A stretch of DNA of 64,000 nt. Source: a virus. Every line of letters begins with the position of its first letter. Positions within the stretch are counted from its first letter, which is position 1. This document shows positions 14,503 to 64,000 of the stretch, piece by piece. Location of the stretch: positions 85,118 to 149,117 of the IMG/VR virus record IMGVR_UViG_3300045988_058524. One strand, 5' to 3'. The position numbers and the translations under genes were made by a program. The notes beneath the pieces were generated by a model. The model was not told the DNA's origin. It saw nothing but the letters and a program-made list of their open reading frames with translations, and searched no databases.

Positions 14503-14979
14503 TTAAAGGGTGTTAAATTGACCCTAGTCACACACCTTATGCTAAATAATAAAATTTCCGACTTTTGTCTTTTTATTAGTTAAAGCATTCTTTATATCCT
14601 ATATCGGAAAACCTAAACTCTATGAACATTCCTATATGGAATCGTAATCCTTATAGAATATGCCCCTTGAGGTCCAGACTCTGATGTATTTTCTCTACTT
14701 GGCAATATTTTGAGACTATTCTACTAGTCTCTCTACACTATCATGAAAGTGTAAGATAATATAGTTGTTATCTTCAAACCATTCCTTAGCTACCTAGTAT
14801 TTTCTAAACATCTTATGGAGTAGCTTTTCTACCTGTTTATCTCCATCCCTTACATCTAACAATTGATATCCAAAGGCGCAGGTATTATAGCACTTCATTC
14901 TCCTCTAGACATCTTTAGCGAAGCCTATCTTCAAAAAGTTGTTGTTTCTTAATAGATATATCATAAAAATTTTTAACAT
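14503..14979 (-). CDS. GIY-YIG homing endonuclease readable only if TAG is decoded as sense (9 in-frame TAG, terminates TAA)
   Basis: Manual translation. MLKIFMIYLLRNNNFLKIGFAKDV*RRMK matches the GIY-YIG core (compare I-TevI GIYQIKNTLNNKVYVGSAKDFEKRWKRH). C-terminus KDYDSI*ECS*SLGFPI*DIKNALTNKK resembles the HTH of homing endonucleases. ATG overlaps the upstream TAA as TAATG. No TAA/TGA in frame. Confidence 0.55.
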
Positions 14980-17593: not shown

Positions 17594-17837
17594 TTTGTGA
17601 ATTATTTCTAACTCATACTGAGAACCTTTCTGCTTACTTTTCTTAGCTTGCTTGCTTCTTCTTACTGCTGGGTCAGCCCATTCAAAAGTAATTCCATCTT
17701 TTGACTTCGCTCCAGAGCCAGGTTTATTAGCTCTGGCTTTAATAGAATTTATCTCTAGACCTGTTACTTCTGATGCTTCCTCTATGGTTTCAAAAGTTTT
17801 CTTTTCGCCATTTTTAAATGTGGCTGTAACACTTGTA

Positions 17838-18851
17838 TTAGTCTACTTTTTCATTCTTCTTAAATTTCTTTATGTAGTTAGTAATAAATTCTTGTGTACC
17901 CTTTCTTCCGTACATATGATAGTAATCACTTATATCCTTAGCTCCTGTACTTCTGGGAATCATTGATACAATTAGTTCTGGATGTTGCTTTCTAATCTTA
18001 TTAGTAAAACGTACTCCAGTTAAATCATTATCATATAGCAACACAACATATTTGAATCTCTGCTTTAATTCTTCTAATACTTTATCAGAAACAAACTGAG
18101 TTTCAGAGTTGGGAGCTATAGCTGGTATTCCTAAAGAATATAAACACATAACATCTTTCATAGACTTAGTTATCACAACTAGTTTACCACTCTTAACTAA
18201 TTGTTTATAGCCTTGAATGGTTTTAGTAGGAACATTGCCTATGAATCTAAACTCCTTTCGTTTTGGCATATAAATACGCCATTGCTCAATGTTTTCTTTC
18301 TTTCCAAAATAGTAACCATAGATAGGACTATGTTGGGCAGATTGTGCATATATATTTCCGTTGAGAAATACAGTATTACAACTGTAGACCTTGAATTTAT
18401 ACAGAATATCTTTAGTAATACCAAAACTTCCCCACCACTTCAACTCAGATTCTGAGAAATCCTTGGCTTCTATTTGAATAAAGGTTTGTTTTTCCTCTTC
18501 AAACTTCGGCTGGATTTTCACTGCAACTTTCTTTACAGAAGAGTCCTTAGTATATCCAAAGTCTTTAGCTATAATCTTTAAAGCAGTGTGGTAGTTACAA
18601 TTATACTTTTCCATAACTACTCCTTCAAATGTCAGACACTTTCCAGAAGCAAAGTCTTTAAAATACAAGTTTCCAGATTTTCCTCTAAAGAAACTGCAGG
18701 TGACGTGACTGTCACTACGCAAAGGAGACTTAAACAATCCTTTCTTAACTGGGATGCCCAGATAATAAGTCATGTAAGTCTCCTCATTGTTCTTAGATAG
18801 AAGAAATTCCTTAGTAATTTTTGGTTCAAAAGTATAATTAAACATAGTCAC
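17838..18851 (-). CDS. DNA primase (TOPRIM domain)
   Basis: C-terminal TOPRIM-like segment with LLYDNDLTG acidic motif. Lies next to the DnaB-like helicase gene. Confidence 0.5.
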   Translation of the reverse strand: MTMFNYTFEPKITKEFLLSKNNEETYMTYYLGIPVKKGLFKSPLRSDSHVTCSFFRGKSGNLYFKDFASGKCLTFEGVVMEKYNCNYHTALKIIAKDFGYTKDSSVKKVAVKIQPKFEEEKQTFIQIEAKDFSESELKWWGSFGITKDILYKFKVYSCNTVFLNGNIYAQSAQHSPIYGYYFGKKENIEQWRIYMPKRKEFRFIGNVPTKTIQGYKQLVKSGKLVVITKSMKDVMCLYSLGIPAIAPNSETQFVSDKVLEELKQRFKYVVLLYDNDLTGVRFTNKIRKQHPELIVSMIPRSTGAKDISDYYHMYGRKGTQEFITNYIKKFKKNEKVD

Positions 18852-20860: not shown

Positions 20861-21954
20861 TATTCTAATGCAAAATTAAAGTTTTCATTTGAATCATCTA
20901 ATTCTGTAATATCATCTAGCTCCTGTTCTACTATAGAACTATTATCTTCTAGTATATAATTTGGGTTTGTATACCTTTCATAATCATAAATTTCATCGGG
21001 CTTTGGAAGCTCGTGGAACATATTAATCCAACCAAAGAAGTTTACTCCAACCTCAACATCACAATCACCATATCGGTTCTTAAGTACCATTATACTTCTA
21101 AAATAAGAATTTAGATACTCAATATTATAATGTTTATAAGTTTTCAATCCATCCCTGTGCGGATTATACAATGCAATCATGATATTACAATCCTGCACAG
21201 TATTACCAGAGTCTTTAGCATCATGAATAGTAAACGCACTCTTTCCCTGCTTAAACCTTTCAATATTTCCTTGCTCTCTATTAGCTTGCTGTATTACTAC
21301 AGGACTAACGCCACACTTATCTCTAAAGAAGAGAAGATAGCTAGAAAGTAAGTCTATGTCAGGTTTAGTACCAACTAGACCAATATGGTCTACTACGATA
21401 TTATAGATAAGATTAGGATTATTAGGCTTATATAGAAGTCTTGTCTCACTTTCAGAAAAAGTTCCCATTTCTTCTAACCTAGTTTTCAAGATAGCATACA
21501 CCTTTTTTGGAGATACTTTCTTGTCATAGATTTCCAGCTTTTTACTAATCTTATCTACCCAGGGCATACATTGCTTAACTAGGTCATAATGTTCCTCTGA
21601 CAAAATATATTCCTTTTCTCTTGAAAGAATCTTCTTAAAAGATAATTGTATTCCATACGTTTCGAAGATATATATGGATAATAGCTTGATATATAAGGCT
21701 ACTTCTCCCATCTCTAGACTAAAATACAATACCTTAAAATCATCATCATCAAGATGTTCCATTAGTGGTCTATAAACATAAGCATAAAGGGCAAATGAAG
21801 TTTTACCTGCACCAGAGTTAGATAGAATTAGTGTATAGGTTTCCCTAGTAACTCCATCAATAATACTCTCTAGTTTAGGAAGTTTCATAGATATACCATG
21901 ATTTAACCCCAATCTACCTCTATCAATTTCGTAAAGAAGTTTCTCAGAAATCAT
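20860..21954 (-). CDS. DnaB-family replicative helicase (RecA-fold domain)
   Basis: SNSGAGKT Walker A, SLEM, DHIGL (H4) motifs. Confidence 0.6.
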   Translation of the reverse strand: MISEKLLYEIDRGRLGLNHGISMKLPKLESIIDGVTRETYTLILSNSGAGKTSFALYAYVYRPLMEHLDDDDFKVLYFSLEMGEVALYIKLLSIYIFETYGIQLSFKKILSREKEYILSEEHYDLVKQCMPWVDKISKKLEIYDKKVSPKKVYAILKTRLEEMGTFSESETRLLYKPNNPNLIYNIVVDHIGLVGTKPDIDLLSSYLLFFRDKCGVSPVVIQQANREQGNIERFKQGKSAFTIHDAKDSGNTVQDCNIMIALYNPHRDGLKTYKHYNIEYLNSYFRSIMVLKNRYGDCDVEVGVNFFGWINMFHELPKPDEIYDYERYTNPNYILEDNSSIVEQELDDITELDDSNENFNFALE

Positions 21955-22556
21955 AGCAATCTCATGGAATCATAATTAACTCCGCCTTCATCTTTTAGTG
22001 CTTCAAGTTCTTCCCACTTATGGTCTATTACAAAGTTGGCAATAGTGGTACATAGAATATTGTGCTCTCTAGCCCACTTTACTAGCTCTATAATTTGATT
22101 ATGAATTTCTGGCTTCCATCTGATAGTCCTACCATAAAACCTATAGAAGTCTTCGATGGTGTCAAATTTCTTGGACACGCTTCTAAGACCCACTTGTGAA
22201 TTATTAACTATCCCGAATTGAGGATAGGTATCCCATAATTCCTTACCTAGCTCAAATGAGCATTTGTAGAAATCTTTAACCACATTTTTGTTTAGTGGAA
22301 TATCTAAGGGATTAAATACACTTCCTTTTTCAGGAATTTTATAGGATTTATGAATAATTCCAGCATTGCGAAGCCCAGTTAATAGTTCTATTGTAAAACC
22401 ACGAGCACATACTCTAGAGGAGAAATACTCATGGACAATTTCTGGTTCGTCGCCTTCTTGGGCAATAAGAATAATTTCTAACAACAACAGCTCGCTCGGA
22501 TTTATACTATATTTCTCACAAAACAGAAGCTGTTGTTTCAATTCAAGATTTCTCAC
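21951..22556 (-). CDS. hypothetical protein
   Basis: ORF track. Confidence 0.3.
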   Translation of the reverse strand: MRNLELKQQLLFCEKYSINPSELLLLEIILIAQEGDEPEIVHEYFSSRVCARGFTIELLTGLRNAGIIHKSYKIPEKGSVFNPLDIPLNKNVVKDFYKCSFELGKELWDTYPQFGIVNNSQVGLRSVSKKFDTIEDFYRFYGRTIRWKPEIHNQIIELVKWAREHNILCTTIANFVIDHKWEELEALKDEGGVNYDSMRLL

Positions 22557-22813
22557 GTGTACAAATTAATAGATTTTCTACTAATCTATACACTAAGTCT
22601 AGTTTACCTGTTAAGGTGTTAAAACTTAGTTACGTGATAAACTTTAGTCCTTAACCTTTTCGTTGGCGGTTTCAAGAAGTACTGCGTAATCCTTCTTTAA
22701 TTCCTTCAACTCAGATGTCAGTTTACTAACTTTAGTTTCTAGCGACTTACATTTCTTAGTAAGTGCAGATTTCATCTCATTATACTCTTTCTTAGTGTAA
22801 TAAGTTTCCATAA

Positions 22814-36916: not shown

Positions 36917-37119
36917 TTTGTTAACTTATCAATTACATTTACTATAGATTCTTCTCCAGCTATGAAACCAGCTCTATGAGCGTTCATAATAAGTTTCTTC
37001 AAACTTTCTAGCTCCTCTTTTGACTTAAGAGTATTGCTAGTATAAATCTCTACTAGTTCTTTTATGTATCTTTCCATATCAAAACATTTTATAGTACCCG
37101 AAGTGGGACTCGAACCCAC
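36913..37119 (-). CDS. hypothetical protein
   Basis: ORF track; 3' end abuts tRNA-Leu. Confidence 0.3.
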   Translation of the reverse strand: MGSSPTSGTIKCFDMERYIKELVEIYTSNTLKSKEELESLKKLIMNAHRAGFIAGEESIVNVIDKLTK

Positions 37120-37179
37120 ACGCCCTCAATGGGCATCAGAGCTTAAATCTGACGTGTCTACCAATTCCACCATCCGGGC
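37095..37179 (-). tRNA. tRNA-Leu(TAA), type II
   Basis: Hand-folded. Acceptor GCCCGGA; D-arm GTGGAATTGGTAGAC; anticodon loop TTTAAGC; variable hairpin GCCCATTGAGGGC; T-arm GTGGGTTCGAGTCCCAC. Confidence 0.75.
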
Positions 37180-42070: not shown

Positions 42071-42121
42071 ATTAAATTAAACAAAAAATACCCCAACAAC
42101 TTTCGCTGCTGGGGTACATAG

Positions 42122-42193
42122 TAACGCCAACGGGATTCGAACCCGTATGGCAGGCGTGAAAAGCCTAAATCCTAACCATTAGATGATGGCGCT
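42122..42193 (-). tRNA. tRNA-Glu(TTC)
   Basis: Acceptor AGCGCCA/TGGCGTT; anticodon loop TTTTCAC; T-arm ACGGGTTCGAATCCCGT. Confidence 0.8.
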
Positions 42194-42196
42194 ATC

Positions 42197-42871
42197 CTAC
42201 TGCACAATCAAGCTATAAGCTTCTTGCAACAGTTTAATAGTTGGAACCATACGGTTATCAACAACTATTATTTTATAAATGTTCAGAATTTCTTTGTAGG
42301 TTAAAGATGTACAAGTTAGAAATATCTGCACATCTTCGTTTACAGAACCATTTGACGATCCTAAATCTACTTTAATCATACTGGGTAATGTCCCAATCTG
42401 AGAAATATCCCAAGTAGATTTAGTTCTCCTGAAAACTTCCCGCTGTTTGGAAGTAAGTTGCTTTTCTTTCAATCTAGACTCAATAATAGTACCATCAAAC
42501 GTTAACGAACCTCCATCGGTATTACTATTATTTAATGCTAGCTGAATCTTCTGAACTGCAGAGTCTTTAGGTTTTGGCTTAAGTTGCACTCCTTCCTTCA
42601 AGCCCTTAATAATCTGCAATGAAGGAATAAAGTCTTTTATTTGAGTTGCATTCCATACAAGAAATTTTCCAGGACTATCCTTAACAGTAACTATATACTT
42701 AGTCCCTCCGTTCAATGGGATAATTACTTGTAAGTCTGCATCACTCATTTTACTTAAATGGTCTGATACTCTAACTTTGACGTTTCCAATGACAAAGTAG
42801 CGAGAAACAGTGGTTTCAGCTTCGATAATCTCGGAAGCTGTTGCTAATAAATACTTTTCTAATCTAGTCAT
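42197..42871 (-). CDS. hypothetical protein
   Basis: ORF track. Confidence 0.35.
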   Translation of the reverse strand: MTRLEKYLLATASEIIEAETTVSRYFVIGNVKVRVSDHLSKMSDADLQVIIPLNGGTKYIVTVKDSPGKFLVWNATQIKDFIPSLQIIKGLKEGVQLKPKPKDSAVQKIQLALNNSNTDGGSLTFDGTIIESRLKEKQLTSKQREVFRRTKSTWDISQIGTLPSMIKVDLGSSNGSVNEDVQIFLTCTSLTYKEILNIYKIIVVDNRMVPTIKLLQEAYSLIVQ

Positions 42872-42899
42872 AAATAATTAATCTATTAAATTACCAAAG

Positions 42900-42972
42900 A
42901 TCCCCCACTCGGATTCGAACCGAGGTCTCGAGATTACAAATCACGTGTTCTAACCAACTAAACTACAGGGGA
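42900..42972 (-). tRNA. tRNA-Thr(TGT)
   Basis: Acceptor TCCCCTG/TGGGGGA; anticodon loop TTTGTAA; T-arm CTCGGTTCGAATCCGAG. Confidence 0.7.
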
Positions 42973-42980
42973 ATAAATGC

Positions 42981-43016
42981 CGAGACTGGGGGATTCGAAC
43001 CCCAACCTTCACAGTG
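42981..43016 (-). pseudogene. tRNA 3'-half fragment (variable loop + T-arm + acceptor 3' strand)
   Basis: AAGGT-TGGGGTTCGAATCCCCC-AGTCTCGGCA. Same acceptor 3' strand (A/C-TCTCGG-CA) as the adjacent tRNA-Asp. No 5' half present. Confidence 0.4.
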
Positions 43017-43088
43017 CCGAGAGTACCAGACTCGAACTGGTGACCTTCGCATAGACAGTGCACTATTCTACCACTGAACTAACCCTCG
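43017..43088 (-). tRNA. tRNA-Asp(GTC)
   Basis: Acceptor CGAGGGT/ACTCTCG; D-arm GTTCAGTGGTAGAAT; anticodon loop CTGTCTA (unusual T37); T-arm ACCAGTTCGAGTCTGGT. Confidence 0.6.
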
Positions 43089-43099
43089 GTGTAACTGGA

Positions 43100-43651
43100 T
43101 TACTCCAGACTAATTAAACCCTTCTCTAACATAATATGGTGATTCGGACATAACCATACTAAATTATTCTCGTTGTTAATCTCCTTAATAAGAGTGTCTT
43201 CGTCAAATTCTAATATTCCTTTAAGATGATGTACTTCAAGTATTGCATCAAATTCATGATTATGACAATATTGACATACTTTCTCACGTTCGGAACTTTC
43301 TAATACTCTACGAGCATTAGTCCTTATTTCTTGACATTTAGATGATAAGTACTTCTGCCCAGATGTATAATAACCTAATGTTTTGTTACCAATTCCATTA
43401 AGTTCTTCCCAGCAACTACGACACATTTCTGAATCTTTATGCTTAGGTTTACCACATCTAGGACATATCTTGTTTTCATCGTGCTTTATCCTACCTCTAT
43501 TATTGTAAGAAGCAGCACACGAATGACTACAAAACTGTTTCTTCCTCACATCTGCGACCCTCTGATTATCTAGTACTTCGATTACCTTACCACATTCCTT
43601 ACAGTGGTTAGGATTCTCATAATACAATTTAAGAGATTGTTCTCGATTCAC
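43100..43651 (-). CDS. HNH homing endonuclease with N-terminal Zn ribbons
   Basis: HHLKGILEF...NLVWLCPNHH (HNH motif); several CxxC pairs. Confidence 0.65.
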   Translation of the reverse strand: MNREQSLKLYYENPNHCKECGKVIEVLDNQRVADVRKKQFCSHSCAASYNNRGRIKHDENKICPRCGKPKHKDSEMCRSCWEELNGIGNKTLGYYTSGQKYLSSKCQEIRTNARRVLESSEREKVCQYCHNHEFDAILEVHHLKGILEFDEDTLIKEINNENNLVWLCPNHHIMLEKGLISLE

Positions 43652-43788
43652 AGATAAGTTTAATTAATTTTAATGACAGTGTGATATGCAAGCCATTACA
43701 CCACAGCCTCGAAAATGCAGGTATTTATCTCGTTACACCTGCGAGTCCGGCAACCCTTTCTTATATACCGCGTGAGCTGGCGGTTTTG

Positions 43789-43862
43789 TAGGGCTAATCA
43801 GACTTGAACTGATAACCTCCACATTATCAGTGTGGTGCTCTAACCAGTTGAGCTATAGCCCT
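43789..43862 (-). tRNA. tRNA-Ile(GAT)
   Basis: Acceptor AGGGCTA/TAGCCCT; anticodon loop CTGATAA; T-arm ATCAGTTCAAGTCTGAT. Confidence 0.8.
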
Positions 43863-43868
43863 ATTATG

Positions 43869-44429
43869 TGGACCTAACGGGAGTCGAACCCGTGTCCAAA
43901 CAACCCTCGTTACAAGGATAACGTGCGTCTCATTTTTATTACATCAGCTAGGGAGTTCTAGCATTTAGGTAGTTTTATAAGTCTTACAAGAGTCCATACT
44001 AAGTATTTCTCTAGATGCTTATCTACAAGCTACCAAACTATAGGGCTGACCGAAGTCAACGTTCCACCACTCCATTTACGTTGGAGAACGGGATGATACT
44101 TTAGAGATTCGTCACATCTCATGGAACACATCTTCCATCTGTTTTATGACGTAGGAGATTCAGTCTTACTAACTCTTAGAGTGTTCTGATTAAGAGTATA
44201 TTACTAGGATTAGAGCCTAGCTCTCCATTATATCAATATACTCAACCTCTTCTGTTTCTAGGTCTCTCCCGTAACCCGACTTAGTTAATAGTGTCTACCA
44301 ACAAGCCAGCAGCTTAGGCTGCCATTCTTACAGGTGCAATTTCTGCAGTTATTTGTTTTCTTCGTTTAAAGAGATTGCGCTCTACACGTCCTTATAATTC
44401 GTAATCGCCTGTCAAATCCAAGTAGGCCC
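43869..44429 (-). ncRNA. tmRNA-like RNA (tRNA-like acceptor/T-arm ends enclosing ~490 nt)
   Basis: 5' end GGGCCUACUUGGAUUUGACAGGCGAUUACGAA parallels the tmRNA 5' consensus (E. coli GGGGCUGAUUCUGGAUUCGACGGGAUUUGCGAA). 3' end ACGGGTTCGACTCCCGT-TAGGTCC-A forms a T-arm plus acceptor strand pairing with the 5' GGGCCTA. All frames are closed by TAA/TGA. Candidate tag frame ...AEIAPVRMAA-TAA. Confidence 0.45.
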
Positions 44430-44438
44430 ATGTTCCCG

Positions 44439-45014
44439 TCAATTAGACGGGAGTTTACATTGTTTAATTATTTCCTTAGTAATTACGTTATTAGCTTCTC
44501 TAGATAACTTATTCAGTTTCTCTAGGTCAAACTCGCTAGATTGAAACTTGAATTGAATCCAAGTTGGCTCGCTTGGTCTATAATCTAACCAAGATTCACA
44601 GTCATCGGTTCCAAGAACTTCTCGTACCATAGCTAAAATACGTTCACCAGCAGCTTTAGTTTTTACGAATCCAGATAAATCATATCCAACACCTCTAGAA
44701 CTCCAGTATTCTCCTTCCTCTAGACGAATGTCTTTTGGTTTCCAATGCCAAGGAGAAATACCTTTTCTAGGATGGTCTATTCTTATAGCTTCTTCCTTTA
44801 CCCATTCAGAGTTTGGGTCAGACGGATTCTCTGGATAAGCTCCATACAAACACTTCATAGTAGGATTATCGCTCCTTACTTCAAAATGTATACCACAGTG
44901 CCTACAAGTACCAGAAGTTAAACCTCCTCCAGATACACAACTACCTTTAATGGCATCACAACCACAGTTGGGACAACCCCATTTTAGGTATTCGTCATAA
45001 AGTATTGATAACAT
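44439..45014 (-). CDS. hypothetical Cys-rich protein
   Basis: CPNCGC...CRHCG. Confidence 0.35.
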   Translation of the reverse strand: MLSILYDEYLKWGCPNCGCDAIKGSCVSGGGLTSGTCRHCGIHFEVRSDNPTMKCLYGAYPENPSDPNSEWVKEEAIRIDHPRKGISPWHWKPKDIRLEEGEYWSSRGVGYDLSGFVKTKAAGERILAMVREVLGTDDCESWLDYRPSEPTWIQFKFQSSEFDLEKLNKLSREANNVITKEIIKQCKLPSN

Positions 45015-45310
45015 TATTTATTGAGTTTAAATTCCACTTCTTTTAGAACAACATACATTTTACCATCCTCTTTCTGTTCAACAGAATTATTAGCTTGTAA
45101 AAAACTAATTATAAACTCCATAGGAATATGGTAACTATCAGTAACGAGCATACCACCATCAATATGATAGCGTTCTTTTCTTTCTAATCTAGTGGGATTA
45201 CCGTTTATAGTAATCTCACCAGAATATTCATTATCCTTATCTGGTTTTATTCCTTTTATATAAATAGAACATCCAGAATCAGCTAGATAAACTTGTTGTA
45301 TTACACTCAT
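45014..45310 (-). CDS. hypothetical protein
   Basis: ORF track. Confidence 0.3.
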   Translation of the reverse strand: MSVIQQVYLADSGCSIYIKGIKPDKDNEYSGEITINGNPTRLERKERYHIDGGMLVTDSYHIPMEFIISFLQANNSVEQKEDGKMYVVLKEVEFKLNK

Positions 45311-45726
45311 AACTTAGGAACATCAGAACGATTATCATGATAACCTTCGTCTCCAACAAGTTGAGCCAGACAACCATGCATATAAGGAACAAGCTCAGGT
45401 TTCTCCTTATAACACCTGTATAGCATCCAACTCATGGAATTTCCACTATGTCCTTTGTCGTAGTACGGAAGTTTGTCTTTGATAGCCTCAATCAGCTCAA
45501 ATAAGCTAGGATATTTCTCATAGAAGGCTTTACATTCCTCCAGACTCATTTCTTTGAAAAACTCAGAAAATGATAGAGCTTGCTTTATACAAGCCATTTC
45601 ATAATCGAATAGGTCATTTTCTTCAAATGTACCATTACCAGCTTCAATGAATAAACGATTGAAACGTTCAATTCTCTCCTGAAATTCTTTCGGAAGAGAT
45701 TCCTTCGTAAGATTCTTGAAATCCAT
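45307..45726 (-). CDS. hypothetical protein
   Basis: ORF track. Confidence 0.3.
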   Translation of the reverse strand: MDFKNLTKESLPKEFQERIERFNRLFIEAGNGTFEENDLFDYEMACIKQALSFSEFFKEMSLEECKAFYEKYPSLFELIEAIKDKLPYYDKGHSGNSMSWMLYRCYKEKPELVPYMHGCLAQLVGDEGYHDNRSDVPKL

Positions 45727-45757
45727 AATCTAATTTTAATTGTTAAAAATAACTTAG

Positions 45758-45824
45758 TAGCGGGATTCGAACCGACGACCTTCAGGTTATGAGCCTGACT
45801 AGCTACCTCTGCTATCATCCCGCG
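45758..45824 (-). pseudogene. tRNA-fMet(CAT)-like gene with ~7-nt deletion in the T-stem/acceptor 3' region
   Basis: Aligns with E. coli initiator tRNA (CGCGGG.TG...GGCTCATAACC.GAAGGTCGTCGGTTC.AATCC) then ends CCCGCTA. The 3' T-stem strand and part of the acceptor are missing. C1 is unpaired as in initiators. Confidence 0.4.
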
Positions 45825-46027
45825 ATATTACAAATGCTTTTTAATTAGTTTACAATGATTATACTCTCCTCCCCATCTAATAGGAAACTCTTTTTCCTTA
45901 GCCTCTTTATACTTCTCTGCCTGTTTCTTGTCTAAGAAGATTTGGCAATCAGTTTCATAATTTTGAGGAGCATTAGCTGGGTGATAATTTACTACATATA
46001 CTTTCATAATTTTTTAAATAAAGTTTG

Positions 46028-46100
46028 TGGACACGCAGGGACTCGAACCCTATCTTCCGGTGTGCAAAACCAGCGCTCTAGCCATTTGAGCTAACGGCCC
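46028..46100 (-). tRNA. tRNA-Ala(TGC)-like with mispaired acceptor stem (possibly degenerate)
   Basis: D-arm GCTCAAATGGCTAGAGC; anticodon loop TTTGCAC. Acceptor 5' GGGCCGT versus 3' CGTGTCC pairs only at 1-4, including G3-U70; positions 5-7 are mismatched. Confidence 0.4.
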
Positions 46101-46231
46101 ATTTTTGGGATTTTCTTTTTAATTGGTGACATACCCATAAATTTCCACTGTTAAGATTCCACAACTTAACAACACCAGATAAGTTTTTTTTTGTTTGAAT
46201 CATGTTCTAGTAGCATAAGTCCGCAACCATG

Positions 46232-46492
46232 CTACTCTCTCAGTTCATCGACTATCGTGTCAGAAAAGGTCTCTATGATTCCGCAGGGACTGGCTTTAAC
46301 CCCGAATGGATTTTTACCTTGCCAGGATATTATTACGTTTCTAGCACTCTGAATTGATTTAGCCTGTTTAATCTTATAATCACGAACTACTTCTTTCATA
46401 TAAGAGTTAAATTCCTTCATGTCTTTCCATGAAATCTCATTAGCTAGTTTTGGAGTTTGAAACATTTTGTACTTTTCTAATAGGTCTTTCAT
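46232..46492 (-). CDS. hypothetical protein
   Basis: ORF track. Confidence 0.3.
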   Translation of the reverse strand: MKDLLEKYKMFQTPKLANEISWKDMKEFNSYMKEVVRDYKIKQAKSIQSARNVIISWQGKNPFGVKASPCGIIETFSDTIVDELRE

Positions 46493-46619
46493 TTCTCTCT
46501 TTAGTTTTCAAAGCATTTTCACACGCTTGTTTCTTCATTACATATGGACAATCACAATTTCCACTGTAGTACCAACAACAATAATCACACTGATGCATAA
46601 TCTAATATAAGGTCAATAG

Positions 46620-46691
46620 CTGGGGCACATGGACTCGAACCATGATTCTTTGATTAACAGTCAAAAGTTCTGACCTTTGAACTATACCCCA
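46620..46691 (-). tRNA. tRNA-Asn(GTT)
   Basis: Acceptor TGGGGTA/TGCCCCA; anticodon loop CTGTTAA; T-arm CATGGTTCGAGTCCATG. Confidence 0.75.
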
Positions 46692-47008
46692 ATAGTTAAT
46701 TTTCTCCACGGGTGTAGATAAGTACCCTTTGGTACTTACCTTTTAGTAGTATCTTTACTCTAGACCTCTATAAGGAGGCGGAATAGTTCCAGAAACTAAC
46801 CATGTATAGCTCTTAGAACTCTGTTCAAAATACCACTTAGCAGCTTTCTTCACAACATTAATTACTTTCTTCATAACATCAAAGTTTAAAATTGTTAATA
46901 ATTAATCTAATTCAGAGCCACAAAAGGAGTTTAGTTGCGGAGGTAGGATTATTTCCAAATAAATTTATATGCAGTTTTCAATTTCCCTTTTACACATAAA
47001 CTAATCTT

Positions 47009-47584
47009 CTAGCGAACACCTCCATTATAAGTTTTAGCATAACCATTGTCTACTAACCAGTGTGCAGCATCGGCTATACTGTTCCAAGTCCTGATAAAAT
47101 TATTATTTAAATCATACTGAGATATTGATACAGGTTGCTTGCAACTTCCCAAATAAAATTTGTTCTTTGGTATATTGTTTATATTTATTACTTTAGAAAC
47201 TGTATCAACAGAACATTGCATTTTGGCGGAAACTTCAATCATTGTCATTCCGCTAGTATATAAAGATATTATTTCTTTATAATCGAATAAGATAGCTCCA
47301 TCGCCTCCCATAGTAGCATTATAGCCATTTGAGTATGTGTCTAGCTTATCTATAAATTGAATTTCATAAGAAGCTAATTCCTCATCATCACATTCATACA
47401 GCTACTCAACTATAAAGTTCTCAACACCATACTTATTCATGGCATCATATAAAGGTCTTTTGTTGCATCTTTCTTTCTAAAAGTCATAACAATGTTCCTT
47501 CCAGCGCTCTTCTATAGAAGTAGTAGTTTTTCCTACGTATCGCTTGCTATTAATTAAATTTGTAATGCAATAAATATATGCCAT
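47009..47584 (-). CDS. GIY-YIG homing endonuclease interrupted by two in-frame TAG codons (and TAG-terminated)
   Basis: Single frame reads MAYIYCITNLINSKRYVGKTTTSIEERWKEHCYDF-TAG-KERCNKRPLYDAMNKYGVENFIVE-TAG-LYECDDEELASYEIQ...MGGDGAILFDYKEI...GGVR-TAG. In-frame TAGs are at 47477-79 and 47402-04. Track pieces 47477..47740 and 47009..47311 lie in the same frame. Confidence 0.5.
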
Positions 47585-47604
47585 ATTTTTAAATTTAAAA
47601 TTAG

Positions 47605-47689
47605 AATCCGTGGAGGGATTCGAACCCTCATTAAAGATTTCTCTTTTCAGTTTTGCAGACTGATGGCTAAACCATTCACCCACACGGAT
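47605..47689 (-). tRNA. type II (Ser-like architecture) tRNA with GCA (Cys) anticodon and U73
   Basis: Acceptor ATCCGTG/CACGGAT. D-arm TGGGTGAATGGTTTAGCC resembles the tRNA-Ser(GCT) at 53358. Anticodon stem TCAGT/ACTGA with loop CTGCAAA. 17-nt variable hairpin AAAGA-GAAA-TCTTT. T-arm GAGGGTTCGAATCCCTC. Confidence 0.55.
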
Positions 47690-47690
47690 A

Positions 47691-47993
47691 TTAAGATTTA
47701 AAGTACTTCTCTCTAAATGGGATATTAAATAATGAATCATTAATATCCTTATCAGTTATTTCCCTATCTAGAGCCTTCTCCGCACATTCGCTACAGATAA
47801 ACACATGGTGGTCTGGATAATAATCTTTACCTCCCCCTTTGTAATAAGAGGAGAATTTCTTTGCAGCTTCTTTTTCAAAATTGGTTAGCTTAAAGTAATT
47901 TATTATCTTGTTCCAAACCTCATCAATAAACATTGGAGAGTTATGGTCTCCATAATAAAATTCTTTATTACATACTGTACACTTTATTTTCAT
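47691..47993 (-). CDS. hypothetical Zn-ribbon protein
   Basis: CTVCNKEF...CSECAEKA. Confidence 0.3.
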   Translation of the reverse strand: MKIKCTVCNKEFYYGDHNSPMFIDEVWNKIINYFKLTNFEKEAAKKFSSYYKGGGKDYYPDHHVFICSECAEKALDREITDKDINDSLFNIPFREKYFKS

Positions 47994-48008
47994 AAAACTT
48001 AAATTTTG

Positions 48009-48080
48009 AGTAGGTAATGAGAATCGAACTCACATCCTCGGCATGGCAAGCCGATGCACTAACCGTTGTGCTATACCTAC
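48009..48080 (-). tRNA. tRNA-Gly(GCC)
   Basis: Acceptor GTAGGTA/TACCTAC; anticodon loop TTGCCAT; T-arm GTGAGTTCGATTCTCAT. Confidence 0.8.
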
Positions 48081-48085
48081 AAATG

Positions 48086-48160
48086 TGCAGATAGAGAGAC
48101 TCGAACTCTCCCCTTCAGATTGGAAGTCTGACGTGCTCAAACCATTAACACCACATCTGC
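48086..48160 (-). tRNA. tRNA-Gly(TCC)
   Basis: Acceptor GCAGATG/TATCTGC; anticodon loop CTTCCAA; T-arm GAGAGTTCGAGTCTCTC. Confidence 0.7.
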
Positions 48161-48197
48161 ATAAGGAGAGTTATACGATACTCTCCTAAACGCTATC

Positions 48198-57678: not shown

Positions 57679-58143
57679 TTATTTAAACAACGGCAATAAC
57701 TTTTTACCAAGAATCTTTACCGCTTTCTGTGCATCAGCTACAGTTCTAAAATAAACAATACCTGGATATTTTACGTTTTGATGCATAACGACGTACACTC
57801 CTTTTATATCAGTTTCCGTCCTTCCAGATAGAGAAGAACCTTTTCCAAGAAAATAGCCAGTATTACCTTCTGTTTTGATCCATCCTTTATTTAGATAGTT
57901 AGCAACTATTTGTAAACTAGCTAGAGAACTGAGTTGTTCTGTCATGCTTGGAGGACATACTAATGTATTCCAAAAACCATAATCTTCTTCAGACTCTACT
58001 ATCTCCTTAAAGGAAGGAATTAGCATTTCCTCACTAAATGCAGTAAGAGCTAATTTCTTCAAGTCTTCATTACCACTTTCATACCATTCGCGTGCCTGCT
58101 CTAAAGTTACTTCAAGATAGGCTTTTGTCTTAATTCTATTCAT
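57679..58143 (-). CDS. hypothetical protein
   Basis: ORF track. Confidence 0.3.
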   Translation of the reverse strand: MNRIKTKAYLEVTLEQAREWYESGNEDLKKLALTAFSEEMLIPSFKEIVESEEDYGFWNTLVCPPSMTEQLSSLASLQIVANYLNKGWIKTEGNTGYFLGKGSSLSGRTETDIKGVYVVMHQNVKYPGIVYFRTVADAQKAVKILGKKLLPLFK

Positions 58144-58144
58144 T

Positions 58145-58390
58145 TTATTTATTAGTTTTTAATGGACACCAATCTGGAATTAATACCCTTTCGTAAGGTC
58201 TTAACATTCCTTCAATTAGTTTATTCTCAGACTCCTTACAGAGCGCTTTCTCGTCGTCATCATTGAACCAGTCATTAGGATCTGGGTCAGGAACAATTAA
58301 GCAGTGCGGACATTCTCTACACTGCTTAATTTCTTTTTGAAATACTACACTAGTACCAGATTTCTGGTAAGTATCCTTCTCCGTACTCAT
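58145..58390 (-). CDS. hypothetical Cys-containing small protein
   Basis: ORF track. Confidence 0.3.
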   Translation of the reverse strand: MSTEKDTYQKSGTSVVFQKEIKQCRECPHCLIVPDPDPNDWFNDDDEKALCKESENKLIEGMLRPYERVLIPDWCPLKTNK

Positions 58391-58396
58391 AATTTG

Positions 58397-58612
58397 TCAT
58401 TTTGTAATTTCTTTAAATTCGTTTATAACTGTTTTTATAAATGGTTTAATATCAAATAATAGTATTACAATAACAAATATAGTATTTATTACTGGTAATG
58501 CCATTATTACGAGTCTTCTAACTGTAACAAATCGTTCATTTACTGCCATATAAAGGCCAACTATGTACGTGCTTATTACGTATATAAATGCTGAATATAC
58601 AAATATCATCAT
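58397..58612 (-). CDS. small membrane protein
   Basis: Two TM helices. Confidence 0.3.
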   Translation of the reverse strand: MMIFVYSAFIYVISTYIVGLYMAVNERFVTVRRLVIMALPVINTIFVIVILLFDIKPFIKTVINEFKEITK

Positions 58613-58630
58613 AATATATTGAAACTAGTG

Positions 58631-58714
58631 TGGGATTGGGAGGACTCGAACCTCCAGTCTCAAAAGAGAGCAGATTTACAGTCTGCGCGGCTACCAATTA
58701 CCGGTTACAATCCC
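58631..58714 (-). tRNA. tRNA-Tyr(GTA), type II
   Basis: Acceptor GGGATTG/CAATCCC; A73; anticodon loop CTGTAAA; variable hairpin TCTC-TTTT-GAGA; T-arm GGAGGTTCGAGTCCTCC. Confidence 0.75.
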
Positions 58715-58927
58715 GAATCGACCTAGTAGAGAACCCTGGTTTCCTCATTTAAATATGACTAACCTATATGCAGTGGGTATACATATTTCTAAAATCCATA
58801 TCCTAGGTCTCGCTAATAGGGTTTTATTCATAGATAGATTGATAATAATCTATCCAATAGTCTGCCTGCATATCTTCGAAGATTTCTTTGAGTTCTTCAT
58901 CAGATAGCCCTTCATATTTGTCTTCCA

Positions 58928-59290
58928 TTATATCTTTCTCCTATTAAATAGTCTAAAATATTCGTCAGAATATACGCTGCATAAGTCCTTATACTTTTTT
59001 GGCATAGGATAATCAAAGTCATCAAATGCAGACTCTTTAATAAATCCATCATGTAGAGCCATATTTGCTGTGGTAACAGCAATATTACAATTACGCTCCT
59101 TTCCCCAGTCAACAATGTTACTCATAACACTATTAAAGTATTCTGTATCATTATCTACTTGGAGATAGATTTCCACTCTGCAAATTGCAGGATTTTTGAA
59201 TCCTTGTCTAAGAGTTATCTTAGATACGAAATTCAAGTCTAGCAAATCTGCTATTCTATCCTTAGCTACAATTCTAGAAATTCTTATCAT
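58928..59290 (-). CDS. hypothetical protein
   Basis: ORF track. Confidence 0.3.
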   Translation of the reverse strand: MIRISRIVAKDRIADLLDLNFVSKITLRQGFKNPAICRVEIYLQVDNDTEYFNSVMSNIVDWGKERNCNIAVTTANMALHDGFIKESAFDDFDYPMPKKYKDLCSVYSDEYFRLFNRRKI

Positions 59291-59317
59291 CTTTTGGTAA
59301 GTTATTTTACATAATTG

Positions 59318-59401
59318 TGGGATAGGTAGGATTCGAACCTACTAAGCCTAAAGGCAACGGATTTACAGTCCGTCCCAACTCTCCATCGTTGGCGCTATCC
59401 C
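59318..59401 (-). tRNA. tRNA-Tyr(GTA), second copy (divergent; C8)
   Basis: Acceptor GGGATAG/CTATCCC; anticodon stem ACGGA/TCCGT with loop CTGTAAA; variable hairpin GCCT-TTA-GGC; T-arm GTAGGTTCGAATCCTAC. Confidence 0.65.
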
Positions 59402-59611
59402 ATAAAGCAATTAACAGATTTGTTCTAATTAACATAGCTACTACAATTCTTCCTCTTGGCACCCCCAAGTCCTCTAGTAGCTAATAGCCGCACTAGTGCG
59501 TGGTAACAATTTTAAGGGAACTCACCTCTGTTAATTGGAGTAATCAGGGATTCATCTACGTAGGCACCCAATAGACATTATCTATTCTACTAGTGAATGG
59601 TGATTACTTCG

Positions 59612-59684
59612 TCTGGATAGTGTGGCTCGAACACACGACCTCTGCATCCCAAATGCAGCGTTCTACCTACTGAACTATATCCAG
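59612..59684 (-). tRNA. tRNA-Pro(TGG)
   Basis: C1-G72 acceptor CTGGATA/TATCCAG; anticodon loop TTTGGGA; T-arm GTGTGTTCGAGCCACAC. Confidence 0.75.
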
Positions 59685-59752
59685 GTGTAAGTATGTGTTT
59701 CACAACAAATACTCACTGCGTAAGAAAAAGAAAAATTCAAGAAAATTGCCTG

Positions 59753-59826
59753 TGACTCCGCTGGGATTCGAACCCAGGACCCCCAAATTAAAAGTTTGGT
59801 GCTCTAACCAACTGAGCTACGGAGTC
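59753..59826 (-). tRNA. tRNA-Lys(TTT)
   Basis: Acceptor GACTCCG/CGGAGTC; anticodon loop CTTTTAA; T-arm CTGGGTTCGAATCCCAG. Confidence 0.8.
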
Positions 59827-59841
59827 ATTTTAATGATAAAG

Positions 59842-59915
59842 TATCCCGTGAAGGATTCGAACCTTCGACCCACAGCTTAGAAGGCTGTTGCTCTATCCAA
59901 CTGAGCTAACGGGAC
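59842..59915 (-). tRNA. tRNA-Arg(TCT)
   Basis: Acceptor GTCCCGT/ACGGGAT; anticodon loop CTTCTAA; T-arm GAAGGTTCGAATCCTTC. Confidence 0.8.
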
Positions 59916-59967
59916 ATCGTGTTCGCTATTATATACAGCGAACTACGTTCTTCTTAGTTAATAATTG

Positions 59968-61933: not shown

Positions 61934-62551
61934 TCAAAGACTCATCAGAGGATCTTCATATAAACCCAATTTATACAATTGCATTATTTCTTCATCTTTA
62001 CTTTTAGGGTCTAATATAGAAAGACCTTTTCTTATTTTTTCTAATCTTTCTAAATTGTTTTTCCTCGATAAATCGTTCATGCATGTAACTGCACTGAATC
62101 CGTAGTCTGTTTCAGTCATTATAAATAGTCCTGTATCTGTGACAACTGTAGAATCAAATATTTTTCCTAAGCAAAAATCTTTGCAGATATTCCTTAGTAT
62201 ATTATCTAGTCCTACAATTTTAAACCTCTCGTTATACCTATCTAAAAAATGACGTGTAAACTCCAGTACTGTAGTATCAGTAGAATAAGCATATATTCTT
62301 TTGCCACATTTAGTAAATACCGTATAATTTAAACTATTTCTACTTAGACATTTCCATACTAAATAATATCTGTTATTTCCAACTTTCATCTGAGTTATTT
62401 CTCCAAAGTGTGGAAAAGTCATTTGATTTTTCATTTTCAACAGTATTCGCCTTTTCTTTACGGCCATTCTTTCTGCAATTTTATCTATTGAGTCTATATC
62501 GCGGTTAAATTCCCTGACAATATCTTTACCTGTCATCGTATCTACAATCAT
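61934..62551 (-). CDS. hypothetical protein
   Basis: ORF track. Confidence 0.35.
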   Translation of the reverse strand: MIVDTMTGKDIVREFNRDIDSIDKIAERMAVKKRRILLKMKNQMTFPHFGEITQMKVGNNRYYLVWKCLSRNSLNYTVFTKCGKRIYAYSTDTTVLEFTRHFLDRYNERFKIVGLDNILRNICKDFCLGKIFDSTVVTDTGLFIMTETDYGFSAVTCMNDLSRKNNLERLEKIRKGLSILDPKSKDEEIMQLYKLGLYEDPLMSL

Positions 62552-62618
62552 AAATTACTATCTATTAAATTATTAAAAGTGCTGTTTTACTTCTAAGCCA
62601 GCAAAGGACTTCCAATTC

Positions 62619-62954: not shown

Positions 62955-64000
62955 TTTTATTAATTATTACTAGAACTATTAGTTTCAGCTTGAATAGCTT
63001 ACTTATCTCCTAAACCACGTAAAGGTTGTTCTTATCTTAGGAGTAGAGGCACCGCTGTGCCTCACAATTGTCTCAGAACTTTCCTGTGCCTATAGCCAAA
63101 TGGCTATTTTCGATTATATAGTGTATAATCTCACAATACTTTGCCTTATCTCTCGATAAGACATCTCTCCAGTATCAAGGAGCATACTGTTTGGTATAAG
63201 AGATGCTCTGCATTAGTCTCTGGGCGTACCCATTATAGTCCTTAACAGCAAATAGAGCCTACAAGTAGCTGTAGTCCTCAAATACTAAGTTCCCCACTCC
63301 GGGTTTGAACCAGAATCTCCTTCTTTAGAGGAAGGCGCAATGCATTATACTAATGGGGAAAACTCTATCTTGGCAACTAGTATAAGATAGAGAGTTATTC
63401 AACTACTTAATTCTCAGTTTCCTATACTGAAAATCAAATAGCTACGTTACTAACGTTCACTAAGAATATAGGTAGCTAATCCATATTCTTGCGACTGAGT
63501 TCGAGGTAGGAAATATACCCTTATGAGGTATCCTCTTATCAGCTAGCCTTATTAATCTAGCGGCTTATACCAGGCAACTTCTAATACAATTGTATAACAT
63601 ATAAAAATATGACATACATGGTCTACTGGTATGTCAGCAGTACTTTCATATATTGCTATAAGTGACCAATCTTATAGCTCAATCCTCCTTACTCATGAGA
63701 TAAGTTTGCGAACTCTCATTTTCATTAATAGCAGTTATTTTCGGATATTGGGCTATCTGCGTAACCCCGCTTTTTGTTGCCTTTTTATAGGCTAATGTTA
63801 GAGTAAATAATCATTGTAGTATGAGTTATAAAACTCGTCCTACTGACGATTTTTTGAAAACTGGAAAAAGTAGGAAAATCTGCCTTTGAGTTTGTGGAAC
63901 ATTCTTCTCCTTACTCTCCATATTTTCACGTGAAACATACACGATTTTACTAGAAATGATAGTCTTTCCTATCAGCCAGACATAAAAACTAAAACTACTA

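Follow-up and report, generated by a model that had tools for sequence, protein, structure and literature searches.

A predicted amber suppressor tRNA beside a RAGATH-14 RNA in the early block of a probable crAss-like gut phage

Genes interrupted by in-frame TAG codons raise the question of what decodes them when the tRNA island of the same DNA carries no CTA anticodon. In the 64,000-nt stretch of viral DNA analysed here (the window), the earlier note had concluded that nothing reads UAG and that the factor must lie outside, elsewhere in the genome or on a co-infecting element, unless near-cognate readthrough by tRNA-Gln(UUG) or tRNA-Tyr(GUA) takes its place. The anticodons listed in that note are real in 25 of 25 cases, all on the minus strand, with ARAGORN calling most of them and Rfam the UGC gene and a degenerate CAU gene. 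The range 42100-59920 holds 22 of the listed genes by ARAGORN and two by Rfam; tRNA-Leu(UAA) had been counted within it and lies outside. The absence of a CTA anticodon inside this range is borne out by ARAGORN.

42121..59915, minus strand: tRNA island, 22 tRNA genes by ARAGORN, interleaved with small ORFs
37094..37179, minus strand: tRNA-Leu(UAA), ARAGORN and Rfam
52890..52962, minus strand: tRNA-Gln(UUG), ARAGORN
47604..47689, minus strand: tRNA-Cys(GCA), 86 nt, with U73 and a long variable arm, ARAGORN and Rfam
46028..46100, minus strand: tRNA-like element with anticodon UGC and three acceptor-stem mismatches, Rfam only, 39.5 bits
45760..45815, minus strand: degenerate tRNA(CAU) without an acceptor stem, Rfam, 31.8 bits

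The 22 island genes comprise Glu, Thr, Asp, Ile, Asn, Cys (two), Gly (two), Leu(UAG), Met, Gln(UUG), Phe, Ser (two), Trp, His, Tyr (two), Pro, Lys and Arg(UCU). Codon supplementation for an AT-rich phage is a plausible role; with wobble rules applied strictly, however, the tRNAs serve 19 of the 20 amino acids and read 77% of the codons in the window, the gaps being Val, Ile-AUA and Arg-CGN, and so come closer to a near-complete set for decoding.

A tRNA with a CTA anticodon, the very observation that the earlier note had named against its own claim, is returned by the ARAGORN run and by Rfam within the window. It lies about 3.4 kb past the right boundary drawn in that note and is an extra gene rather than a Gln or Tyr gene that had been folded wrongly. 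This gene, here termed Sup1, directly follows a RAGATH-14 RNA.

63289..63359, minus strand: Sup1, tRNA(CUA), predicted amber suppressor, ARAGORN and Rfam
63363..63392, minus strand: conserved 9-bp hairpin (CTCTATCTT / AAGATAGAG) between RAGATH-14 and Sup1, with CUAG in its loop
63389..63582, minus strand: RAGATH-14 RNA (RF03145), directly 5' of Sup1, 183.3 bits against a gathering score of 149.1, model positions 1-190 of 190
63583..63800, minus strand: conserved stretch upstream of RAGATH-14, apparently structured, with hairpins showing compensatory changes and no match to an Rfam family
63200..63241, minus strand: conserved block 3' of Sup1 (GGACTATAATGGGTACGCCCAGAGACTAATGCAGAGCATCTC)

Sup1 scores 43.9 bits with RF00005 (gathering score 29; whole-window E = 4.6e-6), and no other full-length tRNA that ARAGORN also calls scores lower with Rfam. 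Its minimum free energy fold is a cloverleaf with a 7-bp acceptor, D, anticodon and T arms and a 7-nt anticodon loop containing U33. This loop, CUCUAAA (C32-U33-C34-U35-A36-A37-A38), presents CUA at positions 34-36, and the acceptor end carries U1-A72 and A73. Across five variants, pairing holds in 97% of the cloverleaf cells (42-57% when the controls are slid), and four pairs are changed on both sides in a compensatory manner; a 38-nt core is identical in seven viral contigs of 186-192 kb. The tRNA is non-canonical because G18 and G19 are absent from its D-loop (AAUGCA, AAGUCA in variants), and the D-stem holds one mismatch. Promoter-like sites around the gene occur at chance level (7 against 5.1 expected) in a scan that does not model Bacteroidota or phage promoters. 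Activity as an amber suppressor is predicted on the basis of TAG-rich genes in the same genome lineage.

A second tRNA(CUA), Sup2, is found in relatives, where it lies on the opposite strand and precedes the recoded late genes; its projected site is 1.7-2.8 kb past position 64000. That the present genome has Sup2 and these late genes is projected from species-level relatives that are 96-98.5% identical at the window's right edge; in an exact-protein look-up, five of five contigs break at about 62556 (window numbering) and supply no upstream sequence. The anticodon is CUA in all 11 sequence variants, in every relative where ARAGORN finds the gene, and Sup2 is more conserved than Sup1 across relatives. 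Judged by its D-arm, U1-A72 and A73, all shared with the phage tRNA-Gln(UUG), Sup2 is a paralogue derived from tRNA-Gln. The main suppressor is thereby probably placed just outside the window in the same genome. The proposal of a suppressor elsewhere in the genome is thus partly right, on grounds other than those given in the earlier note, as relatives do carry a second one outside the window; a co-infecting element is not needed, both being phage-encoded.

The supE-type amber suppressors of E. coli are tRNA-Gln(CUA) species arising as a rare mutant allele. Sup2 resembles them as a tRNA-Gln with its anticodon changed to CUA, and both phage tRNAs have the U1-A72 pair and the A36-A37-A38 context. 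Sup1 matches tRNA-Gln in just part of its identity elements. Unlike supE, Sup1 and Sup2 are phage-encoded and tied to genome-wide sense decoding.

The Sup1 slot is labile. Among 26 related genomes, the exact loop CUCUAAA occurs in 15, and the other 11 carry UUA (6), a 6-nt loop (2), a collapsed anticodon arm (1), CUG (1) or another form (1). These 11 genomes still have 15-20 TAGs in the terminase gene TerL and an intact Sup2, so Sup1 may be dispensable for decoding. The same slot is filled differently in other crAss-like phages, where RAGATH-14 adjoins self-cleaving ribozymes, as the RAGATH name implies. In Suoliviridae-type contigs of about 100 kb (L015, L017, L018 and others; cr53_1, NC_055889.1) and in L077, whose TerL is 74% identical, a type III hammerhead core comes after RAGATH-14 and the hairpin at the same offset; in the present locus a tRNA(CUA) stands where these phages have the hammerhead. 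Predicted cleavage falls about 6-9 nt after the hairpin for the hammerhead, and the tRNA 5' end about 3 nt after it. In the phages of about 100 kb with RAGATH-14 and a hammerhead, these loci contain too few long ORFs for recoding to be read from ORF-length gain.

These arrangements bring forward the alternative that Sup1 is mainly an RNA-processing module, in which an RNase P cut at its 5' end would set the 3' end of RAGATH-14, the CUA anticodon would be auxiliary and Sup2 would be the actual amber decoder. Taken as a whole, this alternative is possible and somewhat unlikely. The hammerhead would do the end-defining job at the same offset in the phages named above, close relatives differ in their slot tRNA and yet remain fully recoded, and one relative (L043) has lost the D-loop and anticodon arm of this tRNA but retains intact acceptor and T arms. 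A processing role could also explain a published puzzle, namely that some Zeta phages, a crAss-like group, retain a CTA tRNA without amber recoding (PMC12386605). However, 15 of 26 slot tRNAs have exactly the same loop although their stems covary, a pattern suggestive of selection for decoding; variants with UUA or CUG remain plausible decoders, and L043 is a single genome, possibly with a recent pseudogene. A tentative extension, put forward with similar reserve, treats tRNA and hammerhead as interchangeable end-defining modules after RAGATH-14 and the hairpin, in a processing slot conserved within an ncRNA operon of crAss-like phages, the slot tRNA having been recruited as an accessory suppressor of amber or ochre codons. 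If true, suppressor release would be linked to RAGATH-14 processing, and this might account for Zeta phages keeping a 'useless' CTA tRNA without recoding. The relationship between RAGATH-14, tRNA and ribozyme is a new side observation. About 33 RAGATH motifs are uncharacterised (PMC11061315), a full-text literature search for RAGATH-14 returns no paper mentioning the motif, and PMC5737381 does not use the term 'RAGATH'. The physical coupling of a labile tRNA(CUA) to this orphan RNA offers a handle on RAGATH function and on the organisation of suppressor expression.

The distribution of TAG bears on the reading of Sup1 as an amber suppressor. Read with the standard code, the 64 kb window already contains minus-strand ORFs of 100 aa or longer that total 53 kb, and these 86 ORFs end in TAA (53), TGA (29) or TAG (4), two of the four TAGs being directly backed by TAA or TGA. 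Only two genes require TAG as sense, both with Pfam endonuclease domains, and these are probably the two that the earlier note had reported as needing UAG readthrough.

46949..47584, minus strand: GIY-YIG/NUMOD1 homing endonuclease, 211 codons, 3 in-frame TAGs (first bases 47479, 47404 and 47011), Pfam
14503..14979, minus strand: T5orf172/MUG113 homing-endonuclease-like gene, 158 codons, 9 in-frame TAGs, its ATG overlapping the stop codon of the upstream ORF, Pfam

Five further readthrough candidates (57278-56526, 48989-48198, 54943-54299, 29342-28998 and 11784-11188) were rejected, as each either shares its DNA with a longer ORF of the standard code read in a different frame or is not protein-like. 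Among about 45 scanned window ORFs, no release factor, aminoacyl-tRNA synthetase or amidotransferase is found.

Just past the window end, the relatives encode TerL (phrog_6681) with 15-24 in-frame TAGs and the portal protein (phrog_6547) with 33-38, and none of the 53 called late-region genes in two of them (L035 and L036) ends in TAG. The model of the earlier note, with its external factor, co-infecting element or near-cognate tRNA, draws on the lack of a CTA anticodon inside 42100-59920 and is matched in part by the second suppressor outside the window. It is nevertheless highly improbable, since the window itself contains a tRNA(CUA) and both suppressors are phage-encoded. With Sup1 in place, there is no need to invoke a co-infecting element or near-cognate reading by tRNA-Gln(UUG) or tRNA-Tyr, and 15-38 UAGs per gene would make the latter implausible.

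The amino acid inserted at UAG can be read, at the level of sequence comparison, from the relatives rather than from the window. In 68 orthologue pairs compared as DNA, the codons opposite TAG are chiefly CAA (81), CAG (34), GAA (28) and AAA (20), and the share of aligned positions facing TAG is 16.4% for Gln against at most 1.6% for K, E, W, Y, L and S, which identifies UAG as a Gln codon. Database homologues of TerL have Q at all 16 TAG positions; this was discarded as independent evidence because those gene calls took TAG as sense, and the codon comparison replaces it. Pyrrolysine or another non-Gln amino acid, a reading prompted by ARAGORN labelling every CTA anticodon 'tRNA-Pyl', is likewise highly improbable, as the substitution spectrum points to Gln, Pyl biosynthesis and PylRS domains are absent from the roughly 45 scanned window ORFs, Sup2 appears to be a tRNA-Gln paralogue and one Sup1-slot variant is a tRNA-Gln(CUG).

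The tRNA genes, the TAG distribution, the assignment of TAG to Gln and the conservation of both suppressors are direct observations, and around them a decoding scheme can be proposed. The phage has a near-complete tRNA set together with amber suppressors of its own. Sup1, directly after RAGATH-14 and the hairpin, heads the minus-strand tRNA and replication block, and Sup2, on the opposite strand, would head the packaging and structural genes. The early genes lack in-frame TAG and could therefore be translated by unmodified host machinery. As the suppressors accumulate, with a timing that we infer, UAG would come to be read as Gln, presumably with charging of Sup1 by GlnRS and with the suppressors competing against RF1 at up to 38 UAGs per gene. 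TerL, the portal and the two window endonucleases would be made at full length only after this build-up. Since the endonucleases are TAG-recoded within a standard-code early block, their expression would be confined to the period after the code switch.

As the best overall explanation, the source is very probably a human gut crAss-like phage, with the window covering its early/replication block and with late genes in code 15. The relatives' contigs span 186-192 kb, and the window represents about one third of a crAss-like phage of about 188 kb. The best annotated TerL matches are Crassvirales TerL proteins at 26-28% identity, with phrog_6681 as the PHROG match. The lineage fits the published 'Zeta' amber-suppressing group, described with genomes of 145-192 kb, TAG->Gln in late genes and suppressor tRNAs (PMC7886860; Yutin et al. 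2021), on shared features and literature tables rather than phylogeny. Traits expected of Zeta genomes include a size of 145-192 kb, a tRNA block heading the replication genes, structural genes in divergent orientation and abundant homing endonucleases, introns or inteins; the present lineage shows this layout, with relatives' contigs in that size range, two endonuclease genes in the window and an intein-bearing TerL homologue (P0003). The Zeta phage cthgQ11 has 188,977 bp, 27 tRNAs, 34.65% GC and a CTA tRNA and is classed as amber (PMC12386605 Table 1; Babkin et al. 2025); ctoVY1 and 3717_85572 are further members (PMC7886860; PMC12386605). Zeta phages and the present lineage share the genome size (186-192 kb for the relatives' contigs here), about 35% GC, about 26 tRNAs heading the replication block, the divergent structural block, a CTA suppressor tRNA, TAG as Gln mostly in late genes, rare TAG terminators backed by a second stop, homing endonucleases and inteins. 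The cited descriptions give one 'CTA' suppressor per genome, whereas the relatives here have two distinct tRNA(CUA) genes. The Zeta papers contain zero occurrences of RAGATH-14, ribozymes or tmRNA.

A matching arrangement is described by Borges et al. (bioRxiv 10.1101/2021.08.26.457843). Code 15 gut phages, including Lak, crAss-like, Sapphire, Agate and others (bioRxiv 10.1101/2021.08.26.457843; Peters et al. 2022, PMC9523058), likewise combine standard-code early genes with TAG-recoded late structural and packaging genes and their own suppressor tRNA, whose proposed role, as here, is the timing of late-gene expression. The present phage differs from them in that no RF2 or other code-change protein is found in the window and in that two homing endonucleases of the early block are also TAG-recoded. 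The genetic-code biology is already known, and this is an ordinary case of a large amber-suppressing crAss-like gut phage. The main consequence is corrective: a suppressor is phage-encoded inside the window, no external amber-decoding factor need be proposed, and code 15 is the appropriate choice when the late genes are annotated. Beyond the cited descriptions are the two tRNA(CUA) genes, one tRNA-Gln-derived and always present in the sampled relatives and one labile and coupled to RAGATH-14, and the TAG-recoded homing endonucleases embedded in a standard-code early block.

The island also contains a further RNA.

43866..44429, minus strand: phage tmRNA (RF00023) with G3:U70 and tag AEIAPVRMAA*, Rfam 66.2 bits against a gathering score of 47

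The tmRNA has a tRNA-Ala-like domain and a tag frame ending in a stop; ARAGORN makes no call at this position, probably because of a 273-nt insertion relative to the Rfam model. No sub-threshold ribozymes are found in the island, and the 'Plastid-ycf2' matches there are antisense matches to tRNAs. A 91%-identical relative has an intact tRNA(CAT) (L037 2172-2245; ARAGORN) that, by its order among neighbouring tRNAs, appears to be the counterpart of the degenerate tRNA(CAU), and the 86-nt tRNA-Cys(GCA) is kept in a 91%-identical relative as well.

Sup1, a tRNA with the anticodon CUA, lies about 3.4 kb beyond the right boundary of the tRNA island delimited in the earlier note (42100-59920), yet within the window. 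That note had held that nothing in the window reads UAG, and had named a CTA-anticodon tRNA inside it as the finding that would speak against this. Sup1 is such a tRNA, and the claim is refuted by ARAGORN, Rfam, the cloverleaf fold and the paired changes. In Rfam, Sup1 reaches 43.9 bits where the gathering score is 29, and its E-value over the whole window is 4.6e-6; the minimum-free-energy fold is a cloverleaf, and the anticodon loop, C-U-CUA-A-A, is preserved as an intact CUCUAAA. A 38-nt core is identical across seven IMG/VR contigs of 186-192 kb each. Among five Sup1 sequence variants, 97% of the cloverleaf cells are paired, versus 42-57% in slid controls, and four acceptor-stem or anticodon-stem pairs are changed on both sides. 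The 'Pyl' label on the CTA tRNA is rejected, being merely ARAGORN's name for this anticodon.

63289-63359, minus strand: Sup1, tRNA with anticodon CUA (ARAGORN and Rfam)
37094-37179, minus strand: tRNA-Leu(UAA) (ARAGORN)
46028-46100: weak tRNA match added by Rfam, three acceptor-stem mismatches, read as TGC in the earlier note
45760-45815: weak tRNA match added by Rfam, without acceptor stem, read there as a degenerate CAT

Across the whole window, ARAGORN predicts 24 tRNA genes, every one on the minus strand and 22 of them within 42100-59920; Rfam agrees on all 24. With the two weak Rfam matches included, the 25 anticodons read by hand are right, and the absence of a CTA anticodon from 42100-59920 holds by both programs. 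The window set serves 19 of the 20 amino acids, has U or G as the wobble base of every tRNA but those for Met and Trp, and can decode 77% of window codons under strict wobble rules; tRNAs for Val, Ile-AUA and Arg-CGN are absent from it. It looks more like a near-complete decoding set than a few rare-codon supplements.

An 86-nt tRNA-Cys(GCA) of the island (47604-47689, minus strand) has U73 and a variable arm of about 17 nt forming a class II-like hairpin, and a normal 75-nt tRNA-Cys(GCA) is also present (49471-49545). The long form is kept in MT837398, a 91%-identical relative (locus L037, 4987-5072), and a TAG-containing GIY-YIG gene lies directly downstream of it in the window. The island also holds a tmRNA (43866-44429, minus strand; Rfam 66.2 bits; G3:U70; tag AEIAPVRMAA*), missed by ARAGORN, with an insertion of 273 nt versus 18 nt at that place in the Rfam model. 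No tmRNA is mentioned in the paper on the Zeta crAss-like phages (PMC12386605). Speculatively, the tmRNA could help to rescue ribosomes stalled at UAG.

The region past 64000 was read from relatives that share 96-98.5% identity with the right edge of the window. Here, a divergent block on the opposite strand opens with TAG-free genes (an exonuclease and a GroES-like protein), followed by a 404-aa protein with 16 TAGs, a 188-aa protein with 3-5, TerL (phrog_6681) with 15-16, and the portal (phrog_6547). In window coordinates TerL would be placed about 8 to 10.5 kb beyond 64000. In two relatives whose TerL is 72-78% identical, most called genes near TerL hold in-frame TAGs (up to 38 in the portal), TAG is about as frequent in late genes as CAA and CAG together, and no late gene uses TAG as terminator. 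Among 80 TerL-anchored viral loci, TerL contains 7-24 in-frame TAGs in every lineage with at least 55% TerL identity, and no more than one in-frame TAA or TGA occurs save in loci L080 and L099, where the longer match suggests an inserted element. These longer matches, with both in-frame TAA and TGA (L080 10001-12681; L099 10001-13522), fit an intein or intron; one TerL homologue, P0003 (1131 aa), has intein/LAGLIDADG Pfam domains.

The meaning of TAG was addressed by codon comparison at the DNA level in 68 orthologue pairs from four lineages. Opposite TAG stand TAG (190), CAA (81), CAG (34), GAA (28), AAA (20) and then a long tail. TAG faces 16.4% of aligned Gln positions, versus at most 1.6% for Lys, Glu, Trp, Tyr, Leu and Ser, and its commonest partner is CAA, though two mutations apart. 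This Gln bias, with CAA first despite its distance, indicates that TAG is a Gln codon (code 15).

A second tRNA(CUA), Sup2, is found in every relative whose locus extends far enough upstream, 2.4-3.4 kb from Sup1 and on the strand of the late genes. With same-species loci as a ruler, its expected place in window coordinates is about 65.7-66.8 kb, just past the window end, where it would be a 73-nt tRNA-Gln(CUA), TGCCCTATGGTGTAATGGTCAGCACAGATGACTCTAAATCATTTAGTCTGGGTTCGAATCCTAGTAGGGCAAC, on the plus strand about 1.7 to 2.8 kb beyond 64000. Sup2 has its D-arm, U1-A72 and A73 in common with the window tRNA-Gln(UUG), which by sequence marks it as a tRNA-Gln paralogue. The CUA anticodon is constant in 11 of 11 Sup2 variants, and the acceptor and anticodon stems show compensatory changes. 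The earlier note had placed the suppressor outside the window; of its overall reading only this survives: just outside, in the same genome, there very probably is a second and better conserved suppressor. The window itself has Sup1.

Sup1 has U1-A72 and A73, as does Sup2; its D-arm is unlike that of Sup2 and lacks G18G19. The common acceptor features, together with a CUG variant in the position of Sup1, suggest that Sup1 may also accept Gln. In our reading, the main suppressor is the conserved Sup2, with Sup1 in an auxiliary role. A lineage with TerL 75-76% identical has Gln-like tRNA(CUA) genes of 89-90 nt (L063 103-192; L066 2218-2307; L071 303-391), the extra length being an insertion of about 17 nt in the variable region.

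Within the window, every coding gene is on the minus strand, and ORFs of at least 100 aa fill 53 kb of 64 kb under the standard code. Pfam assigns replication and nucleotide metabolism (NrdD, a DnaB-like helicase, Toprim primase, a superfamily-2 helicase, ATP-dependent DNA ligase, RNase H), NAD salvage (NAPRTase/NAMPT, a cytidylyltransferase-like protein), SPFH proteins and an OmpA-like protein; the window is an early/replication block. Among the approximately 45 window ORFs scanned there is no release factor, aminoacyl-tRNA synthetase or amidotransferase. The ORFs of at least 100 aa end in TAA (53), TGA (29) or TAG (4), with TAA or TGA directly after TAG in two of the four. Only two window genes require TAG as sense, both homing endonucleases in the standard-code early block, and these are presumably the two genes said in the earlier note to need UAG readthrough.

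47584-46949, minus strand: GIY-YIG/NUMOD1 homing endonuclease, 3 in-frame TAGs, Pfam 40.4 bits
14979-14503, minus strand: T5orf172/MUG113 endonuclease, 9 in-frame TAGs, Pfam 40.4 bits

Two long stop-to-stop ORFs on the minus strand lack an early ATG. One (21951-22565; 205 codons) has no start that could be used and directly precedes the DnaB-like gene, in a different frame; in the other (17309-17842; 178 codons) the first ATG is codon 111. Both may be exons of genes split by introns, which have been reported for Zeta phages. Five independent metagenome contigs (L001-L005) that carry a 206-aa gene at 61934-62554 begin at most 2 nt from its start, near window position 62556. This recurrent assembly break suggests that the sequence separating this gene from the Sup1 locus is variable or repeated.

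Early genes without in-frame TAG would be translatable by the unmodified host machinery. The phage would transcribe its own tRNA set, suppressors included, and abundant tRNA(CUA) would cause UAG to be read as Gln, allowing the TAG-rich late genes to be made. The early-block homing endonucleases with TAGs would, in the same way, not be expressed before the switch. The gene layout behind this model is observed; the timing of the switch, suppressor charging and competition with RF1 are what we infer. A code-switch model of this kind has been published before for recoded gut phages (bioRxiv 10.1101/2021.08.26.457843; PMC7886860).

The nearest annotated TerL relatives are Crassvirales, at 26-28% identity. 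The Zeta crAss-like group, and within it the amber-suppressing genomes of PMC12386605 Table 1, resembles this phage in genome size, in GC (about 35%), in having some 26 tRNAs where the replication block begins, in the divergent structural block and the CTA suppressor, and in amber recoding, homing endonucleases and inteins; cthgQ11, for instance, has 188,977 bp, 27 tRNAs, 34.65% GC, CTA and amber (PMC12386605 Table 1). Some Zeta genomes without recoding, such as ct3H02, ctT3W1, ctE7s22 and Lera, also have a CTA tRNA, seemingly unused. By the common features, the phage matches the Zeta group, and as a genetic-code phenomenon it is already known.

The sole part of these findings that may be new is the relationship between the RNA RAGATH-14, the tRNA and the hammerhead. 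In the window, a full-length RAGATH-14 (RF03145; 63389-63582, minus strand; 183 bits in Rfam) ends 29 nt upstream of Sup1, with a conserved 9-bp hairpin between them (RAGATH-14 plus hairpin, 63363-63582, minus strand). All large-genome relatives keep this order, among them L036 with a diverged copy. A type III hammerhead core follows RAGATH-14 and the hairpin at the same offset in L077 and in Suoliviridae-type contigs of about 100 kb (L015 683-951, hammerhead at 905-951; L077; L038, NC_055889.1 99065-99342; e.g. cr53_1, Blohavirus americanus). Its score on RF00008, 26.5 bits (E = 7.6e-4), is under the gathering score, but it has the CUGAUGAG...CGAAAC core and all of stems I-III. The tRNA and the ribozyme appear interchangeable in one slot, directly 3' of RAGATH-14. 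A tRNA is an RNase P substrate and a hammerhead is a self-cleaving ribozyme; their occurrence in one position suggests that both may set the RAGATH-14 3' end.

Element in the slot at 27 loci with RAGATH-14 (26 with a tRNA, 1 with a hammerhead)
CUA: 15/27
UUA (ochre type): 6/27
6-nt anticodon loop: 2/27
collapsed anticodon arm, acceptor and T arms intact: 1/27 (L043)
CUG, tRNA-Gln per ARAGORN: 1/27 (L099)
other degenerate form: 1/27
hammerhead ribozyme: 1/27

Sup1 is evolutionarily labile among close relatives, and all 26 loci having a slot tRNA remain fully TAG-recoded, with 15-20 TAGs in TerL, and have an intact Sup2. Downstream of Sup1, some same-species relatives carry a pistol ribozyme or RAGATH-1 hammerhead (L008 4269-4337; L010 589-657; L011 1116-1185); the window has neither.

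Upstream of RAGATH-14, about 220 nt (63583-63800, minus strand) are highly conserved in five lineage variants, with several hairpins showing compensatory changes, and no Rfam family matches this stretch; it may be an undescribed structured RNA or leader. Its TCGCAAACT motif recurs upstream of RAGATH-14 in Suoliviridae-type loci. Related phages hold dense ncRNA islands, one of which, of about 6 kb (L015 683-6346), contains RAGATH-14, a hammerhead, RAGATH-6, RAGATH-7, three hatchet ribozymes, tRNA-Leu and RAGATH-9.
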